Source: Candidatus Niyogibacteria bacterium
GTDB taxonomy: Bacteria > Patescibacteriota > Minisyncoccia > HO2-45-28
Assembly (NCBI GenBank): GCA_016181935.1
Contig: JACOYI010000004.1
Span: forward strand, 5,292 to 69,291
Direction: 5' to 3'
DNA length: 64,000 bases
Part shown: piece by piece, positions 209 to 60,710 of the stretch
Position numbering within the stretch: position 1 is the first letter of the stretch
Layout of the letters: each line of letters opens with the position of its first letter
Made by a program: the position numbers and the translations under genes
Notes under the pieces: model-generated
What the model saw: only the letters and a program-made list of their open reading frames with translations
Told to the model about the DNA's origin: nothing
Database searches by the model: none

Positions 209-267
209 GAAGGTGTGGATAACTCGATCTTGATCGATCTCGTTGAATCTGATAAGATCAAAACGCT

Positions 268-1566
268 ATGCAAAAACGGCAGCCCAAGAATACAACAAAA
301 CAACGATTTACGCAAGACAGGCCGTTGCGGGTCGTGGAATTATTCGCCGGCGTCGGCGGCTTCCGTCTTGGTCTCGAAAATTGCAAAACGAAAAAAAAAT
401 TCAAATACAAAGTGGTATGGAGCAATCAATGGGAGCCCGCTACAAAAAAACAGCACGCATCTGAGGTTTATATAAATCGCTTTGAATCCGAAAATCATTC
501 GAACGAGGACATCGCACAAGTTAAAACATCCAACATTCCGGACCACGACCTGCTCGTCGGCGGATTCCCCTGCCAAGATTATTCGGTCGCGCGAGTGCTT
601 TCCCATGCTGCCGGGATTGTCGGGAAAAAAGGAGTTCTGTGGTGGCAAATTCATCGAATTTTAAAAGAAAAAGGCTCGCGGGCGCCGTCCTGTCTCATGC
701 TTGAAAATGTGGATCGCCTTTTGAAATCTCCCGTATCACAACGAGGGCGCGACTTTGCCATCATGCTCGCCTCGTTGAATGATCTCGGCTACGTCGTGGA
801 ATGGCGAGTGATCAATGCTGCCGATTATGGCATGCCGCAACGGCGTCGGCGCATATTCATATTGGGATATAAAAAAAACACCTCCATCTATCAAAAAATC
901 GCGGGCCTCAAAAATCCGTCCGACTGGATAAAAAACCACGGCACCGCGGCGAAGGCGTTTCCGATAAAAGAAAGCCTCGATTCCAAAAGTTTTAAAATTG
1001 ATGGTGGGTTCGCGGAAATCTCTGAAAATTTCAATAAAAATGGCGGCCAAACAACGCCATTCAAAAACGCTGGGATTGTGATAAATAGAAACGTGACAAC
1101 ACTCGAAACAAAGCCGAACTATCGAGGAAAACACTTGGTTCTCGGCGATATCACGCTCGATGAAAATGATGTCTCAAAGGAATTTTTCATAGAAAAAAAA
1201 GATCTGCCGCAATGGCAATATTTAAAAGGTGCGAAAAAAGAGGAAAGAAGTGGACAAAATGGGTTTAAATTTTTCTACAATGAGGGATCGATGGTCTTTC
1301 CGGATCCGTTAGATAAACCATCGCGAACGATCATCACCGGCGAGGGCGGCCCCACACCGTCTCGATTCAAACACGTCATCAAAACTGCATCCGGAAAACT
1401 GCGCCGACTTACTCCACTTGAACTCGAGCGTCTTTGTATGTTTCCCGAAGATCACACAGCGGGGCAACCCGATATAAAACGAGCATTTTTTATGGGAAAT
1501 GCGCTGGTCGTCGGTGTCATTGAAAAATTAGGCGAAGCATTGGCCCAAAAAATCAACGAGGCCTGA
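268..1566 (+). CDS. dcm: DNA (cytosine-5)-methyltransferase
   Basis: 432 aa; motif I ELFAGVGGFRLG, motif IV GGFPCQDYS, ENV motif; C-terminal target-recognition region. Confidence 0.9.
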   Translation: MQKRQPKNTTKQRFTQDRPLRVVELFAGVGGFRLGLENCKTKKKFKYKVVWSNQWEPATKKQHASEVYINRFESENHSNEDIAQVKTSNIPDHDLLVGGFPCQDYSVARVLSHAAGIVGKKGVLWWQIHRILKEKGSRAPSCLMLENVDRLLKSPVSQRGRDFAIMLASLNDLGYVVEWRVINAADYGMPQRRRRIFILGYKKNTSIYQKIAGLKNPSDWIKNHGTAAKAFPIKESLDSKSFKIDGGFAEISENFNKNGGQTTPFKNAGIVINRNVTTLETKPNYRGKHLVLGDITLDENDVSKEFFIEKKDLPQWQYLKGAKKEERSGQNGFKFFYNEGSMVFPDPLDKPSRTIITGEGGPTPSRFKHVIKTASGKLRRLTPLELERLCMFPEDHTAGQPDIKRAFFMGNALVVGVIEKLGEALAQKINEA

Positions 1567-1996
1567 CTTTCAATTTGTCTCTCAATTTTTCAATGACTTT
1601 ATTGGCATCTTTCTTGATATCACATTCCCAAATCACAACTGACGACCATCCCATTGCTCGTAATTCTCGAATTTTTTTCTTATCGCGAATCTGATTATTT
1701 AAAAATTTCTTACGCCAAAACTCTCGATTATGCTTCGGCATCGGATTCTCGCATTTCGGACATTGATGCCAAAAACAACCGTTTATGAAAATAGCCAGTT
1801 TCTTTTTTAGAAAAGCTATGTCCGGCCTACCCGGCAACGACGTATGCAAGCGAAAACCCTCAAGCCCTATTCGTCTTAACTCATGCCGAACTTGAAATTC
1901 TGGTGAAGTATTTTTACTACGATTCGCGCTCATCACCCTAGAAACGAATACGGATTTTGATTTGGGCGAACGTTTGTCTCGTAAAAATCTCGGCAT
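1553..1996 (-). CDS. vsr: very short patch repair endonuclease
   Basis: 147 aa; LPGRPD, GCFWH, FW..K...N..RD, GW..IWEC motifs match Vsr; convergent 14-nt overlap with dcm; AT-rich. Confidence 0.85.
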   Translation of the reverse strand: MPRFLRDKRSPKSKSVFVSRVMSANRSKNTSPEFQVRHELRRIGLEGFRLHTSLPGRPDIAFLKKKLAIFINGCFWHQCPKCENPMPKHNREFWRKKFLNNQIRDKKKIRELRAMGWSSVVIWECDIKKDANKVIEKLRDKLKVRPR

Positions 1997-2034
1997 AAAA
2001 AAATTAAATCGGGTCGCGAGATTTAAATCTTTTA

Positions 2035-2625
2035 CTATTTCGCTCCTGATTGCTTTTCCGTAATAAGATTTAGCTTATTTAGAGCCCCAACAGTAAGCTT
2101 GATTAACTCTTCACTATCTTTTGATATTTTCTCGCTTTCTTTAAATTCCTTATCCAAATCAAATTTCACCAATTTCATGCTACCCGGTTTTTTTTGTTTC
2201 TTGTCGTCTGGTAGCTCTTCGTTGCTCTTTCGGACGTAATAACCAACTCCTCCCTCGTTTGGAAAGACGAGATGATGATGAGCTAAGTTGTTTCTTATAT
2301 TTTGTAATCTTTTTATTGATTCGCAAATATCTAACCACCTCTTTTTTTCAAAACAAATCCCGTTTTCTTCGCAAACTCTCCAAACCCCTTTTATAACCTT
2401 AACCAACAAGCGCCTCTTGTTTTCAATACTCGGAAAGACATTTTCATCCGCCATCGCATCATTGAAAATAAAATTTTTTTCGGATTGTGGGTTGGAAATA
2501 TCGGTAAAGAAAATCGAGAGGGTTGTTATAATCAGGGTTTCTATTTTATTAAGATTATAAATAATTCCTCCAATATTTTTAAAAATTTCCGGATATTTTT
2601 CTTGTAATTCTCTGGTAGTTGTCAT
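2035..2625 (-). CDS. hypothetical protein with HEPN-like Rx4HH motif (possible Abi/HEPN RNase)
   Basis: ORF 2035..2787 trimmed to ATG at 2623-2625 because upstream part overlaps tRNA-Ser; 197 aa, very AT-rich, motif IRNNLAHHH. Confidence 0.45.
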   Translation of the reverse strand: MTTTRELQEKYPEIFKNIGGIIYNLNKIETLIITTLSIFFTDISNPQSEKNFIFNDAMADENVFPSIENKRRLLVKVIKGVWRVCEENGICFEKKRWLDICESIKRLQNIRNNLAHHHLVFPNEGGVGYYVRKSNEELPDDKKQKKPGSMKLVKFDLDKEFKESEKISKDSEELIKLTVGALNKLNLITEKQSGAK

Positions 2626-2732
2626 CTTATTAGCATTTTTACAAGCTCTTGCTTTGTGTCTGCCTCTAAGCAGGCGCACTCTTTCGCTTCTACGGCAAAA
2701 GCCGGGGTTTCTAGTATCCCGTATCTTCACAG

Positions 2733-2819
2733 CGGAGAGGGCGAGATTCGAACTCGCGGCGGAGTTTCCCCCGCACTTGCTTTCCAAGCAAGCGCACTAG
2801 ACCACTATGCGACCTCTCC
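2733..2819 (-). tRNA. tRNA-Ser (anticodon GGA)
   Basis: Cloverleaf read by eye: acceptor GGAGAGG/CCTCTCC, anticodon loop TTGGAAA, long variable arm, T-loop TTCGAAT. Confidence 0.85.
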
Positions 2820-2848
2820 GGATATTCGGAAGCCCATAGGGCTTCCGG

Positions 2849-3169
2849 TTATTTTTTCTTCTCGTCTTCCAACTGCTGGATCATCAGCTTGTTGCCGATG
2901 AATCCGACAAAGTGCTTCCGCGACGCATTCCCGCCCCGCGAAATCTCGGTGCGATATGCGCTGAACTCCTCGTTCGACAAGGCGTGGTTCCCGAGCTTCT
3001 CCCAGATGGCGCGGTCCTCCTCCGTCAATGCGTCCGGATTTAATTCCGAAAAATGCGCGGTTGCGGCCTCACCGGATTCCTCCTCCGCCTTCAGCTCCCA
3101 CATTTCGGCGCGAAAGGATTCGAGCCCGTTTTCGGACGATTCCATCGGCGTTTCTCGTTCGGCTTTCAT
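2849..3169 (-). CDS. hypothetical acidic protein
   Basis: 106 aa from ATG 3167-3169 with GAGGGA Shine-Dalgarno 7 nt upstream; ATGA start/stop overlap with htpX. Confidence 0.4.
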   Translation of the reverse strand: MKAERETPMESSENGLESFRAEMWELKAEEESGEAATAHFSELNPDALTEEDRAIWEKLGNHALSNEEFSAYRTEISRGGNASRKHFVGFIGNKLMIQQLEDEKKK

Positions 3170-4062
3170 ATCGTCATCCCTCGTAAGCGCGCGATTCGTT
3201 CCTGAATCGGTGGGTGCGTCATGAACAATTTCGCTACGGTAGTATGCGTCTTTCCGTGGGGATCCGCAAGCCACAGGTGCGCCGTGGCGTTGTTGGCTCG
3301 GCGCATCGGTTGAGTGTACGCTCCGATTTTCTCGAGCGCCGAGGCAAGCCCGTCGGGATAGCGCGTAAGCAACGCGCCAGACGCATCGGCCAAAAATTCG
3401 CGCTTACGCGAAATGGCGAGCTGGATGAGCATCGCCGCAATGGGCGCCAAAATGGATAACGCGATGCCGATAACAAGCATGATCGCGCCGCCGCGTCCGC
3501 TGTCGCGATCCCCGCCGCGAAACCCTCCCCAGAGCATCGAGCGCATGAACATGTCGGACAAAAGCGCGATGAACCCCACCAGAACTACCGCCACGGTCGA
3601 GACCAGCATGTCGCGATTGCCGATGTGGGAGAGTTCGTGGGCCAAAACCCCCTCGAGTTCGGTGCGATTCAGGCGCTCCAAAAGCCCGCGCGTTACGGCT
3701 ACTACGCCATGCTCGGCATTGCGCCCCGTCGCGAACGCATTGGGCGCGGCGTCATCCACGATGTATACGCGGGGCATCGGGAGACCGGCGGTGATGGCAA
3801 GATTTTCAACGACATTGTAGAGCTCCGGCGCCTGTGATTTTTGAATGGGTTTGGCCCCCGTCGCCGCCAAAACAATTTTGTCCGAATACCAATAGCTCAC
3901 CACATTCATGATGATGCTGAACAAAACCGCAAAAATCAGAATGGACGGGTTGCCATAGATGCGCGAAAACACCCACCCGATGCCGATGACCACGATGAAA
4001 AACAGGGTGAAAAGCGCCCATGTCCTGCGGATATTGGAATCGCGGTGCGTGTATAAGTCCAT
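3166..4062 (-). CDS. htpX: M48 family zinc metalloprotease HtpX
   Basis: 298 aa; HELSHIGNRD (HEXXH) motif, N-terminal TM helices. Confidence 0.9.
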   Translation of the reverse strand: MDLYTHRDSNIRRTWALFTLFFIVVIGIGWVFSRIYGNPSILIFAVLFSIIMNVVSYWYSDKIVLAATGAKPIQKSQAPELYNVVENLAITAGLPMPRVYIVDDAAPNAFATGRNAEHGVVAVTRGLLERLNRTELEGVLAHELSHIGNRDMLVSTVAVVLVGFIALLSDMFMRSMLWGGFRGGDRDSGRGGAIMLVIGIALSILAPIAAMLIQLAISRKREFLADASGALLTRYPDGLASALEKIGAYTQPMRRANNATAHLWLADPHGKTHTTVAKLFMTHPPIQERIARLRGMTI

Positions 4063-4127
4063 CCTCTATATATGAAGCAAAATGGCCCAAAAGAAAAGTC
4101 CCGCATCCACCAGTTGGCGGAGCGGGA

Positions 4128-4328
4128 TCAATGCTTGACTTCGACGAGTAGTTGCCTGCGTGCGGGCTCGCCCGGTTTCGGATCGGGAACGGGTTCCCAA
4201 TCCGTTTGAAAATATTTGAAACAGTGTGAACACCACGCGCCGCGAGTTGTATCCTGAAGGATGGTTTTGTCGTGCGGACACTTGAGCGGCCGCGGCACAA
4301 GCCCGCCACTGACAATTTCCTGCCCCAT
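4128..4328 (-). CDS. small zinc-ribbon-like hypothetical protein
   Basis: 66 aa from internal Met (MGQEIVSGG...); CPHD...CSHC cysteine/histidine pairs; sits in htpX-lemA intergenic gap. Confidence 0.3.
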   Translation of the reverse strand: MGQEIVSGGLVPRPLKCPHDKTILQDTTRGAWCSHCFKYFQTDWEPVPDPKPGEPARRQLLVEVKH

Positions 4329-6326: not shown

Positions 6327-7985
<1,659 letters not shown>

Positions 7986-7994
7986 CTAGTCGAA

Positions 7995-8297
7995 TTAGTT
8001 AATGATTGCGAGGATGTCCTCCTCCTTTACGATGAGATAATTCTTGCCGTCGAGTTTCAGCTCGGTCGGGCCGTATTTGGAAAACAACACGCGGTCGCCT
8101 TTTTTCACGGCGAGCGGGATCAATTTCCCTTCATCGGTATGACGGCCCTTGCCCGTTGCAATGACCTTTCCCTGCTCCGGACGCTCCTTTTCGGCGGTAT
8201 CCGGAATCACGAGGCCGGACTTGGTGCGGCCCTCCGTGTCCTCTTTTGACAAGGGCTCCACCAGCACCCGATCCCCCAATGGTTGAACTTTCAGCAT
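7995..8297 (-). CDS. groES: co-chaperonin GroES
   Basis: 100 aa Cpn10. Confidence 0.97.
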   Translation of the reverse strand: MLKVQPLGDRVLVEPLSKEDTEGRTKSGLVIPDTAEKERPEQGKVIATGKGRHTDEGKLIPLAVKKGDRVLFSKYGPTELKLDGKNYLIVKEEDILAIIN

Positions 8298-8338
8298 AAA
8301 AATGTGGTGAAAGAATGCTAATTGTTTTTACAAGACGC

Positions 8339-8366
8339 ATTATAGCGAGCGCCCGAAAATCGTCAA
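8339..8366 (-). promoter_or_regulatory. sigma70-like promoter of groES-groEL (TTGACG-N16-TATAAT)
   Basis: Minus-strand TTGACG (8361-8366) and TATAAT (8339-8344) about 45 nt upstream of groES ATG. Confidence 0.5.
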
Positions 8367-8405
8367 GTCCCGCCCGGACGCTCGCCCCCAAAGATGGTCC
8401 TTTTC

Positions 8406-8442
8406 AAGGGGAGTCCTTAGGAATCGGAAAAGGACTCCTCCT
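8406..8442. repeat. REP-like palindromic element (GGGGAGTCCTT-N11-AAGGACTCCTCC)
   Basis: Inverted repeat with spacer aggaatcggaa; same architecture as the other copies. Confidence 0.65.
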
Positions 8443-8454
8443 AAGGTATCCTTA

Positions 8455-8483
8455 ACAAAAAAACCGCGCTTTGTTCAGCGCGG
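8455..8483 (-). terminator. rho-independent terminator
   Basis: Minus strand CCGCGCT-GAACAA-AGCGCGG followed by TTTTTTT; overlaps stop codon of 8475..8714 gene. Confidence 0.7.
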
Positions 8484-8714
8484 CCAGTTGCAACTCACCG
8501 AGTCATAACCCAATCCCACAACACACTCGACACCACTCGACAAGCGAAGATAGTAAACAAAACCCGTATCGGTGATCAGTATCTTGCGAATTTCTACGGG
8601 CATTTCGTGCTTTGTGATTTTCTGAATTGTTTTCCATTCTTCCTTGCTCGCCTCACAGCCGCCAAGAATACCGATGATCGCCACAACGACCAAGACAATC
8701 GCCCATCGTTTCAT
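8475..8714 (-). CDS. small secreted lipoprotein, SCNWP C-terminal family
   Basis: 79 aa from ATG 8712-8714 (AAGGAG SD); signal peptide with lipobox ILGGC; C-terminus ...SVSCNWPR; paralog of 9769..10044. Confidence 0.5.
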   Translation of the reverse strand: MKRWAIVLVVVAIIGILGGCEASKEEWKTIQKITKHEMPVEIRKILITDTGFVYYLRLSSGVECVVGLGYDSVSCNWPR

Positions 8715-30127: not shown

Positions 30128-30472
30128 GTAAACTCTGCACTGTGTCGGCTCACTCGGGCTTTCCAAGGGTTTCCCGAGGTCCGACTGCACCGGGTACCTG
30201 TACACGCCTTGAGGCAACTGGCGATAGTACAGCTTGGCGGCCAGAAAGCGGGTGCCTCTCGCTGCAAAGAACCGATTTATGGAGGAACGCAATCGCAGGA
30301 TTTTGGCAGCCGGGGCGGTGGCCGCCGAACTTAAAATCCCCCGAACTCAGAACGTCCTGCGATTGCGCGAAAGGGTCGGCGGAGATTCAGGCGTTGAGGC
30401 CCATCTCGTGACTTCCGTGGGGCCGCGTCTGACCGGATCCCCGCCGATTCGTTGAGTGAAAGAACTTCGGAA

Positions 30473-30553
30473 AGCGCCCGACGGGAATTGAACCCGTGAC
30501 CCCCGATCCAACACGCGTGCCGGATGGTGCTCTACCAGCTGAGCTACGGACGC
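30473..30553 (-). tRNA. tRNA-like gene with aberrant anticodon arm (possible pseudogene or non-canonical tRNA)
   Basis: Canonical acceptor GCGTCCG/CGGGCGC, D-arm GCTCAGCTGGTAGAGC, T-arm ACGGG-TTCAATT-CCCGT; anticodon region replaced by 8-bp stem ATCCGGCA/TGTTGGAT with 4-nt loop CGCG; 81 nt. Confidence 0.4.
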
Positions 30554-30967
30554 TTGCTTATGTGAAGTGGAGCAGGAAGGGTGGGTACGGTACGGCGTTC
30601 GCATACCTAGGATTTAGGACCACGGACCCTGCCGCGGAACGCTAGCCGCCTTCTGCGGCCCACCCCGTCCTGCATGTGAATCTGAAAAAGTTGAGTGGCT
30701 ATAGGGCTTGAGACGTCCCCTTCCATTTGGAAGTGATCATCCTCCGCGCAGCGCTTCCGTCGAAGTCCACGCCTTTCACTACCCCTCAATGACACCTAAC
30801 CGATGGTCACCAAGGTTAGTATAGAAAACTCAACTACAGCCACTCTGAAGAGGAATCTAGCACCTTCCTCTTTCCCTGTCAAGAGGTGGCGGCAGGCAGC
30901 CCACAAAGTAACAGCCGGGAAAGGAGGAGAACCCACCGCTACCCGAGAAGCCGCCTTGCCGCCAGAA

Positions 30968-31039
30968 AGCGCTTGGCCGGATTCGAACCGACGCTCGGGG
31001 TTTTGCAGACCCCCGCCTTACCAGCTTGGCTACAAGCGC
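30968..31039 (-). tRNA. tRNA-Cys (anticodon GCA)
   Basis: Acceptor GCGCTTG/CAAGCGC, anticodon stem GGGGT/ACCCC with loop CTGCAAA, T-loop TTCGAAT. Confidence 0.85.
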
Positions 31040-31254
31040 TTAAGAACTTTTCGTTTTCGCACGCTTTCGCGCGCCTGTTTTTGATATTTCAACCGCTCCA
31101 CCAGCGGCAATGAAACAAAATCTCCGCGATCAATGACGTCCGCGATCTTTCTTTCGTCTGAAGTCAACGGGACCGCATCCATCGACAAGTCGGTCAGGAT
31201 CCGCGTGATTTTTCCCATCGCACACCTCCGTTCGTAACAACTTTATTCAATCCC

Positions 31255-59930: not shown

Positions 59931-60194
59931 TTATCGTTTCGAGAAGTAGTTGTAGAACCAGCCCCACGCGTACCCGATCAGCCATCCGAATACGGCGAGT
60001 GCGACCAGCATCCCCACAAAATCCCCGAACGCGATGGACTTGGGAACCATTTTTGCGATATCGGCCCCAAAAAACTGCGCGTTGAACAGGAATTTGAACG
60101 CCTCCGGCATCGCCGTCCACAGCACATAAAATACGATGTAGACAGCGGCGGTGATGGCGGCCAACGAATTGGCAAGTGCGATTTTATTGAACAT
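59931..60194 (-). CDS. small membrane protein
   Basis: 87 aa, two TM helices. Confidence 0.45.
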   Translation of the reverse strand: MFNKIALANSLAAITAAVYIVFYVLWTAMPEAFKFLFNAQFFGADIAKMVPKSIAFGDFVGMLVALAVFGWLIGYAWGWFYNYFSKR

Positions 60195-60318
60195 AGACCG
60201 CGGTATTTCTATTTCTAATAAATTCTAATAAAAGAGACCTTTTTTTAATTCTTTTTCAGTATACCACATCAACCGGCCGCCGCCACCCGATGGTGGGGAT
60301 AAATAGCGGATCGAAGTG

Positions 60319-60389
60319 CTGCGGGGCTTGGATTCGAACCAAAATACCATGCTTCAGAGGCATGTGTCCTACCGTTAGACGACCCCGCA
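60319..60389 (-). tRNA. tRNA-Gln (anticodon CTG)
   Basis: U1-A72 acceptor TGCGGGG/CCCCGCA, anticodon stem CATGC/GCATG with loop CTCTGAA, T-loop TTCGAAT. Confidence 0.8.
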
Positions 60390-60710
60390 ATATGTTCTTA
60401 TTCTATGGCAATTGGCACACACCAAATCGCATTTATCAATTTCTGCCAAAATCTTATCTTTGGAATAACTATGCACATTGATCATCTGATTAATACCCGC
60501 CATCTTTGTTTTTCTGTCTCTATGATCAAAATCCATTACATAGGATGGATATTGCATTCCGCAATCCGTACAGGGTTTTTGCTTTAAAGCATTCACAAAC
60601 TTAATCAAATTCTCTCTTCTTTTGATGTTTTTCTGCCTATAAAGCTGCCTATTTCTCAAATAGTATCTTTTGTGGCATTCCCTTCTTTTGACAATATCCT
60701 TATATGGCAC
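60375..60710 (-). CDS. HNH endonuclease
   Basis: 111 aa; CTDCG...MDFDH...CANCH zinc-finger HNH motif; about 35% GC; 3' end overlaps tRNA-Gln by 15 nt. Confidence 0.7.
   Translation of the reverse strand: MPYKDIVKRRECHKRYYLRNRQLYRQKNIKRRENLIKFVNALKQKPCTDCGMQYPSYVMDFDHRDRKTKMAGINQMINVHSYSKDKILAEIDKCDLVCANCHRIRTYCGVV

Follow-up and report, generated by a model that had tools for sequence, protein, structure and literature searches.

A probable defence islet beside tRNA-Ser in a Candidatus Niyogibacteria genome, with a methylase-Vsr cassette and a candidate solo HEPN-superfamily gene

In E. coli, dcm and vsr are co-directional genes, and vsr overlaps the 3′ end of dcm. Patescibacteria, which have tiny genomes, had been regarded as carrying few defence systems. 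Here, we analyzed a 64,000-nucleotide stretch of Candidatus Niyogibacteria DNA (GenBank assembly GCA_016181935.1, contig JACOYI010000004.1, positions 5,292 to 69,291; hereafter the window), at the left end of which a Dcm-type methyltransferase gene, a vsr gene and an unannotated open reading frame (ORF), ORF3, lie next to tRNA-Ser(GGA). An original prediction, made from the sequence, had described these genes as a horizontally acquired defence islet and the ORF3 product as HEPN-like. We conclude, with moderate confidence, that the locus is a mosaic defence islet, extending from tRNA-Ser to ung, in which a restriction-modification (R-M)/Vsr cassette is combined with ORF3, as a putative HEPN RNase, and a Fic pair.

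HEPN genes embedded in R-M operons are described in passages of the survey by Anantharaman et al. (2013; PMC3710099), which also predict that, when restriction fails, HEPN RNases back up R-M systems by cell suicide. The PD-T4-2 anti-phage system (Vassallo et al., 2022, in the summary given within PMC10952713) comprises a DUF262/GmrSD_N protein and a HEPN_RiboL-PSP protein. Compared with such systems, the locus is an ordinary small defence islet, in which only the ORF3 family and the candidate restriction enzyme are moderately new.

ORF3 and the HEPN superfamily

The third ORF is present and very AT-rich, as originally proposed, but it encodes 196 amino acids rather than 197, with an ATG at 2625 and a stop codon at 2035–2037. 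An independent gene call on L006, a Logan contig that is identical to the window DNA across their overlap and reaches 2.1 kb further left, yields the same product. A longer, TTG-initiated ORF3 reaching 2787 was discarded as spurious, as it runs into the tRNA. ORF3 and vsr are co-oriented, with ORF3 upstream at a distance of 38 nt. Its R-NNLA-HHH motif is found where it had been noticed, as R111-N-N-L-A-H116-H-H, encoded at 2272–2295. Based on rough amino-acid frequencies, about 0.2–0.5 chance Rx4H matches are expected per 196-aa protein, and a single Rx4H in ORF3 is not significant by itself; it becomes meaningful because it is invariant across homologs.

A word-indexed search of 5.8 billion proteins gave three matches to ORF3, and an exhaustive search of 1.84 billion representatives gave 47 clusters at E ≤ 1e-3. 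Homologs occur in Patescibacteria and in metagenome-assembled genomes (MAGs) of Acidobacteriota and Gammaproteobacteria; none were found in viral contigs, phage genomes, or plasmid collections. In an alignment of 35 full-length members, with identities down to 18%, the only invariant columns are R111, N112, and H116 (RNxxAH), whilst A115, K70, F92, Q108, and L157 are conserved in at least 90%. The HEPN assignment had been made to depend upon conservation of the arginine and the histidine, and the invariance of both, together with the asparagine, leaves it probable, although not proven.

An AlphaFold2 (AF2) model of ORF3 was built with the 35-sequence alignment (predicted local distance difference test score, pLDDT, 96.0; predicted template modeling score, pTM, 0.87). 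It comprises helices at residues 12–40, 48–59, 67–87, 94–116, 157–171, and 174–195, with a beta-hairpin and a short helix at 127–155, after helix 94–116. In the secondary structure of the model, RNNLAH closes the long helix 94–116 and is followed by the loop/hairpin. This modeled placement appears to match the published position of the HEPN motif, given in a passage of PMC3710099 as the place where helix-3 ends and the loop to helix-4 begins. In the structural comparison proposed at the outset, the placement of the motif may fit HEPN proteins, and Foldseek returned no HEPN fold.

The outcome of the proposed profile searches was similarly divided: members of the family match HEPN profiles, but the window ORF3 itself passes no curated threshold. 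The only Pfam families matched by more than one of the 35 members are HEPN_LA2681 (three members) and Cas_Csm6_HEPN (two members), with an E value of 0.006 in each case and scores below the gathering score. HEPN_RiboL-PSP and HEPN_Cthe2314 are each matched by one member, also below the gathering score. In PADLOC, 22 families are matched by members at E ≤ 1, and these are mostly Csx1, Csm6, CARF-HEPN, Cas13a, and PD-T4-2_B models, including CARF_HEPN PDLC01803 (five members, best E 2.2e-6), Csx1 (three members, best E 4e-4), and PD-T4-2_B (three members, best E 1.6e-4). For example, residues 28–141 of P0028, a member that matches the family with E 1.4e-23, align to positions 295–394 of 426 in CARF_HEPN (E 2.2e-6), and the same protein matches PD-T4-2_B (E 1.6e-4). 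The member alignments cover ~60–115 residues in the C-terminal HEPN part of the models, and therefore extend beyond the hexapeptide.

Several results weigh against placing ORF3 among the HEPN proteins. The best Pfam match of the window protein is HEPN_Cthe2314, at E 0.064 and 13.7 bits versus a cutoff of 27.1, and scans of PADLOC, NCBIfam, and PHROG with ORF3 gave no match; nor did the family consensus sequence match anything in PADLOC. Only a minority of members yield the HEPN matches, most of which have E values of 1e-2 to 1e-4. Foldseek searches of the Protein Data Bank (PDB) with two ORF3 models retrieved only generic helical bundles; with the pLDDT-96 model, these were generic or designed bundles (best E 0.31), and Csm6, Csx1, and HepT structures were absent from the top 50. 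The first model gave one suggestive BFVD match (A0A4Y5TZQ9; E 0.016, TM-score 0.51–0.61), which is unnamed and uninterpretable. Searches of PDB sequences by phmmer and with profiles, using ORF3, the family alignment, and two members, gave chance matches only. The 35-sequence profile recovered just six family members from the 5.8 billion proteins, with no bridge to a Pfam-annotated HEPN protein, and hhalign of the family profile with the single HEPN_RiboL-PSP protein of a related cassette (L012, below) gave a probability of 0.2%, one sequence being too little for such a comparison.

The generic bundles found by Foldseek, and the failure of the window ORF3 to pass any curated HEPN model, would also be expected if ORF3 were a helical bundle without nuclease activity, for example one that regulates the R-M/Vsr cassette or serves it as an adaptor, or an anti-defence or anti-restriction factor, in which RNxxAH serves for binding or structure. 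Inactive HEPN-like domains do exist (listed in a table of PMC3710099). However, it is exactly R, N, and H that are invariant, with all else variable, which is a catalytic rather than a structural signature, and members match HEPN-domain profiles over ~100 residues, beyond the motif. Furthermore, ORF3 has no helix-turn-helix (HTH) domain, and the lack of homologs in phage, viral-contig, and plasmid collections speaks against a phage anti-defence gene. We consider a non-nuclease function quite improbable. It is probable that ORF3 belongs to the HEPN superfamily, and that it represents a new minimal family within it that is a member of no curated family.

Genomic contexts of ORF3 and of the methylase-Vsr cassette

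A related-locus search with a three-sequence ORF3 alignment gave three genome loci and four metagenome loci. In the locus L001, the homolog P0003 lies within a type I R-M operon with the gene order hsdR, NYN, hsdM, SMODS/CD_NTase_C, a gene for a 177-aa multi-transmembrane protein, P0003, and hsdS. The SMODS/CD_NTase_C gene, that of the 177-aa protein, which has several hydrophobic segments, and P0003 occupy positions 6541–8576, between hsdM and hsdS, and one may ask if the first two constitute a minimal CBASS-like pair. Ahead of P0002 come a patatin gene, tRNA-Gln(CTG), and a small ORF with a weak, DUF559/Vsr-fold-like match, and rplJ-rplL comes after it. The order at the P0004 locus is tRNA-Gln(TTG), a GIY-YIG gene, the homolog, and a 234-aa ORF, all within a pocket of 33–38% G+C content (GC) in a contig of 44–50% GC. 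A homolog from Acidobacteriaceae lies between an HTH_3 gene and hslVU, and nothing could be learned from the surroundings of the two most divergent members. In L019, at 863–1422, the homolog is split over two reading frames (tblastn high-scoring segment pairs 863–1108 and 1111–1347), and is either a frameshifted pseudogene or the product of an assembly error.

All-against-all BLAST of the neighbors in eight loci found nothing in common but the ORF3 homolog, and the idea of a conserved partner for ORF3 was rejected on this result. Since the neighbors share only the homolog, the ORF3 family is best described as a solo, mobile gene. Its linkage to R-M is facultative (two of the eight contexts). 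In three of the eight independent loci, the gene is located 100–450 nt downstream of a tRNA and is co-oriented with it, when a rough estimate based upon ~45 tRNA genes per Mb puts the chance at roughly 2% per gene. Proximity to tRNA is therefore clearly enriched in the family, and fits tRNA-proximal insertion hot spots.

Many HEPN proteins are toxins of toxin-antitoxin (TA) pairs (HepT/MNT, RnlA, and AbiF), only 38 nt separate ORF3 from the co-oriented vsr, and the islet already holds a TA-like pair, consisting of a 67-aa protein and Fic. ORF3 might accordingly be a toxin whose antitoxin, be it a tiny ORF, an AbiF-type RNA, or Vsr, was missed, and which would function in plasmid or islet addiction rather than being triggered by phage. 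However, no neighbor is conserved across the eight independent loci, and Vsr is found beside the homolog in the window only. An RNA antitoxin upstream of ORF3 was tried and rejected: TRF found no tandem repeats at 2600–2750, the only Rfam element is the tRNA, and there is no stable fold (z-score −0.53). An MNT-type nucleotidyltransferase is not adjacent to ORF3 in the window, nor is a minimal nucleotidyltransferase adjacent to the homologs in the seven other loci; in L001, the SMODS/CD-NTase-type gene is two genes upstream of P0003, with the multi-transmembrane protein in between. We give the TA explanation little credence. Nevertheless, that we found no antitoxin gene, sensor domain, or RNA antitoxin for ORF3 also counts against it being a solo RNase, as an unregulated enzyme of this kind would be toxic.

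The identities assigned to the other two genes are upheld by profile matches, and both genes look intact. Dcm matches the Pfam family DNA_methylase (PF00145, E 2.9e-62, profile positions 2–322 of 324), TIGR00675 (E 1.3e-71), and the PADLOC model MTase_II (PDLC03329, E 1.8e-163). Its translation shows the catalytic motifs FAGVGG, GFPCQ, ENV, QRRRR, and GNALV, and the nearest solved structure is M.HhaI (catalytic domain only, E 1.9e-31). Vsr matches TIGR00632 with 105.5 bits (cutoff 97.85) and PF03852 (E 2.3e-17), and retains GRPD, GCFWHQC, and WEC motifs, which, judged by E. coli Vsr, include the catalytic aspartate and the zinc ligands. The two genes converge, with the 14-nt overlap that had been noted (1553–1566), the stop codon of dcm being located at 1564–1566 and that of vsr at 1553–1555.

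The partial ORF at the left edge of the window, which had been suggested to encode a restriction partner, encodes the N-terminal end of a protein of 254 aa (L006, 2597–3361) that is 100% identical to HYT22_01690 in the National Center for Biotechnology Information (NCBI) database, from a Candidatus Niyogibacteria MAG (Patescibacteria/Parcubacteria group). Its family contains 97 homologous 90%-identity clusters, all of which are annotated as “hypothetical” and most of which are from Patescibacteria. In keeping with the suggestion, the gene is divergent beside an orthologous PF00145 methylase in all contexts fetched, i.e., nine of nine further loci (L012, L013/L014, L015, and L020–L024), where the 254-aa homologs are from 86% down to 38% identical to the window protein and the sister-cassette methylases are 56–63% identical to the window Dcm. 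Vsr (49–54% identical by tblastn) converges on the methylase in L012, L013/L014, L021, L023, and L024, and a tblastn match to Vsr is present in every further locus with sequence past the dcm 3′ end, except L015. Gene callers had dropped vsr in L012, L013, and L021, where it was recovered by tblastn. The vsr/dcm 3′ overlap, which is 14 nt in the window, is 93–105 nt in L014, L023, and L024, where vsr was annotated (regions 679–2355, 1815–3491, and 1845–3521, respectively). As judged from these sequences, the convergent overlap is conserved across the cassette family, with variable length. The candidate endonuclease gene, the divergent methylase gene, and the convergent vsr thus make up a conserved mobile cassette with variable flanks, which is common in Patescibacteria. 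In L022, the cassette is flanked by an IS110 transposase.

Because the 254-aa gene is divergent beside the orthologous methylase in every sister cassette, it is a candidate restriction endonuclease, and by its position, the protein is the probable cognate type II endonuclease. Conserved motifs of the family are GKPGKE, NPxDM, LDH, ALNEDxKY, and GRxNN, and the arrangement D73...E170-D171-x-K173 offers a suggestion of a PD...(D/E)xK-like site, but only that. On the other side, the protein has no match in Pfam, PADLOC, the PDB (by sequence and profile), or a plasmid tblastn search, a result that tells against this assignment. Restriction enzymes are commonly without detectable homology.

The same absence of restriction-enzyme matches, in PADLOC, Pfam, and the PDB alike, would be expected if the 254-aa gene had nothing to do with restriction, and Dcm and Vsr were an orphan methylation and repair pair with an epigenetic or housekeeping role, in which case the locus would not strictly be a defence islet. 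Such orphan pairs are familiar, for instance from E. coli K-12. However, the 254-aa gene stays divergent beside the methylase across 38–86% identity and varied flanks, as is typical of R-M. In addition, the block is compositionally foreign, and is flanked by Fic, PD-T4-2-like pairs, and, in L022, the IS110 transposase. An orphan pair is therefore unlikely, and we favor an R-M/Vsr cassette.

The position upstream of vsr that is occupied by ORF3 in the window proved to be informative in the sister cassettes, where a co-oriented pair of genes lies 24–46 nt upstream of vsr, encoding GmrSD_N (DUF262) and a small partner. In L012 (pair at 2591–4154), the partner is a bona fide HEPN_RiboL-PSP protein (PF18735, E 2e-16), and the PD-T4-2 system, which has been validated experimentally and is counted among HEPN systems, is likewise made up of DUF262 and PF18735, as summarized in part of PMC10952713. 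In L021 (3509–5128), L023 (149–1768), and L024 (179–1798), the partner is a 177-aa protein with the sequence WRDLAAH, which has no Pfam HEPN match and, from its sequence, may be another unannotated HEPN variant. The slot holds an unrelated 67-aa Myb-like ORF in L013/L014, and in the window it holds ORF3, 38 nt from vsr, without a DUF262 gene; tblastn also found no GmrSD_N in L006. Judging by these sequences, a HEPN-type gene is a recurrent, exchangeable companion of this R-M/Vsr cassette, and its recurrence in the vsr slot matches the prediction of a HEPN second line behind R-M systems that is made in passages of PMC3710099.

Anatomy of the islet and a proposed mechanism

The features of the window part of the islet are listed in Table 1. 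ARAGORN and Rfam both place tRNA-Ser(GGA) beside ORF3, as had been described, with its 3′ end pointing toward the islet. The tRNA marks the right border of a low-GC block, with a step from 35–46% to 56–63% GC. To the left of the 254-aa gene, L006 carries the 67-aa ORF, then a gene for a 214-aa Fic protein, and then, on the opposite strand, ung, which is 59.8% GC and marks the left border. The islet therefore spans ~4.2 kb, the right-hand 2.8 kb of which is in the window.

Table 1. Features in the islet portion of the window (positions are those of the window; strand as read from the forward strand)
Feature	Position	Strand	Remarks
Candidate restriction endonuclease, first 69 codons (of 254 aa)	1–208	−	Remainder left of the window, L006 2597–3361
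Divergent intergenic region, 59 nt, between candidate endonuclease gene and dcm	209–267	.	Presumed shared promoter/control region
C5-cytosine DNA methyltransferase (Dcm-type), 432 aa	268–1566	+	PF00145, TIGR00675, PADLOC MTase_II
Vsr very-short-patch-repair endonuclease, 147 aa	1553–1996	−	TIGR00632, PF03852
ORF3, 196 aa, member of an unannotated family; probably a solo RNase of the HEPN superfamily (predicted effector of the abortive-infection type)	2035–2625	−	
Codons of predicted catalytic motif R111-N112-N113-L114-A115-H116	2278–2295	−	Read from sequence
Spacer, 106 nt, ORF3 start to tRNA 3′ end	2626–2731	−	No RNA element detected
tRNA-Ser(GGA)	2732–2819	−	ARAGORN; Rfam tRNA 59.8 bits

The low GC that had been remarked upon is confirmed: 34.0% for ORF3, 40.1% for vsr, and 46.3% for dcm, as compared to 52.8% for positions 3000–64000 (standard deviation 4.1% in 600-nt windows). 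The lowest 600-nt window elsewhere is 38.2% GC, so ORF3 is the most AT-rich stretch in the whole window. Because of this composition, the cross-phylum homologs, and the repeated tRNA-adjacent placement, horizontal acquisition of the islet, which had been proposed from composition and tRNA adjacency, is supported. An argument to the contrary is that neither an att-type direct repeat of the tRNA 3′ end nor an integrase was found in the islet. The islet is bracketed by an inverted repeat of 14 nt, AAACCCCGGCTTTT / AAGAGCCGGGGTTT, which has one mismatch and is located at L006 95–108 and 4308–4321, from just inside the tRNA (about 2697–2710 of the window) to the fic end, left of the window. It is probably meaningless, because chance alone would give about two such pairs in 4.9 kb. 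A sigma-70 promoter scan of 209–267, and promoter and terminator consensus scans, gave nothing above background.

Immediately left of window position 1 (L006 3487–4342), the 67-aa ORF ends 8 nt ahead of the 214-aa Fic gene. The Fic protein has the sequence HPFRDGNGR and is matched by PADLOC to SoFic/PDC-S04, whilst the 67-aa ORF carries SSTLEG, which fits the inhibitory motif (S/T)xxxE(G/N); both motifs are defined as is usual for Fic proteins. From these sequences, the two have the appearance of either a class-I FicTA-like pair or a class-II Fic that has been split.

The dcm-vsr genes plus ORF3, for which the original prediction named no one-to-one counterpart, are a mosaic of independent modules rather than one system, as the components recur separately. 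Based on what is known of each component, we propose the following scheme. In the first module, the methylase would protect host DNA at its own site and the 254-aa candidate endonuclease would cut unmodified DNA, whilst Vsr would nick at T:G mismatches arising from deamination of 5-methylcytosine and so start their repair; the convergent overlap may couple expression of vsr and dcm. In the second module, ORF3, which is probably co-transcribed with vsr, would dimerize, such that the R111/N112/H116 triads of two subunits form a composite, metal-independent RNase site, by analogy with HEPN enzymes. Upon phage infection, or failure of restriction, ORF3 would cut cellular RNA (tRNA, mRNA, or rRNA), leading to growth arrest and abortive infection (Abi). 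Because there is no conserved partner gene, control of ORF3 would be either intrinsic or supplied in trans, and the conserved beta-hairpin/helix insert at residues 117–156, right after H116, is a speculative candidate for a regulatory element. The third module, just outside the window, would be the 67-aa protein with the Fic-inhibitor motif and the Fic AMPylase. We infer the RNase activity, dimerization, trigger, and defence phenotype of ORF3 by analogy, and we likewise infer the nuclease activity of the 254-aa protein.

A bolder version of this scheme is conceivable, although we think it unlikely to be correct. In it, the ORF3 family would be a self-sufficient, ~190-aa HEPN ribonuclease and single-gene Abi module that can take the place of the two-gene PD-T4-2 system in the vsr slot; the tRNA-proximal placement would reflect a dedicated strategy of insertion or co-transcription, possibly with tRNA cleavage; and the 254-aa protein would be the first of a new family of restriction endonucleases.

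Elsewhere in the window, a second AT-rich pocket (38–41% GC) is located at 60100–60710. It contains a small HNH-like ORF (CTDCG...DFDH...CANCH; 60375–60710, minus strand) that abuts tRNA-Gln(CTG) at 60318–60389, its annotated 5′ end overlapping the tRNA, and offers a further example of a small nuclease gene situated beside a tRNA. Two tRNA-Cys(GCA) genes, 83 and 74 nt long, are found ~400 nt apart on the minus strand (30472–30554 and 30967–31040).

Comparison with known systems

Should ORF3 prove to be an active solo HEPN RNase, few stand-alone HEPN effectors would be smaller. Its family is outside Pfam, PADLOC, NCBIfam, and PHROGs, and hence falls in a blind spot of current defence-system annotation. 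The islet would also represent a compact defence stack in a member of the Patescibacteria, with R-M, Vsr, HEPN, and Fic on ~4 kb. The swapping of the HEPN slot between PD-T4-2-like pairs and the solo ORF3 provides a natural system for the study of R-M/HEPN coupling, and the 254-aa family offers a candidate new restriction enzyme with a ready-made cognate methylase.

With respect to Csx1, Csm6, and CARF_HEPN proteins, ORF3 shares an RNxxAH-type Rx4H motif with an asparagine after the arginine and, in the model, a helical fold in which a long helix ends with the motif. In contrast, ORF3 is only 196 aa in length, has neither a CARF sensor domain nor a CRISPR-Cas neighborhood, carries the beta-hairpin/helix insert after the motif, and fails the curated thresholds of Csm6/Csx1, as well as that of Abi2. 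ApeA and DARNA (PD-T7-3) are likewise single-gene HEPN effectors without an antitoxin, and the DARNA motif, R117x4H122, is at nearly the same distance from the N-terminus as that of ORF3, within a Csm6-like HEPN domain. However, both are far larger (DARNA has 456 aa), with extra sensor or oligomerization domains, and no ORF3-family member matches the PADLOC models of either at E ≤ 1. ORF3 differs from HepT/MntA in having no MNT partner, and from AbiF-type systems in having no RNA repeats.

PD-T4-2 is linked to the locus by PD-T4-2-like pairs that fill the exact slot upstream of vsr in sister cassettes, and by three to four of the 35 ORF3-family members that weakly match PF18735/PD-T4-2_B (E 1e-4 to 1e-2). 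In contrast to PD-T4-2, the window has no DUF262 partner, and ORF3 is below the PF18735 and PD-T4-2_B thresholds. As in the R-M-embedded HEPN genes of Anantharaman et al. (2013), R-M genes are accompanied by that of a predicted HEPN RNase in the window and at P0003, but ORF3 is in none of the listed families at curated thresholds. Finally, as in the E. coli dcm-vsr pair, the genes for a C5 methylase and Vsr overlap and encode proteins of the same families, but in the window they converge, with overlapping 3′ ends, and have a conserved divergent candidate endonuclease partner. Taken together, the findings extend known themes, and do not overturn any existing idea.

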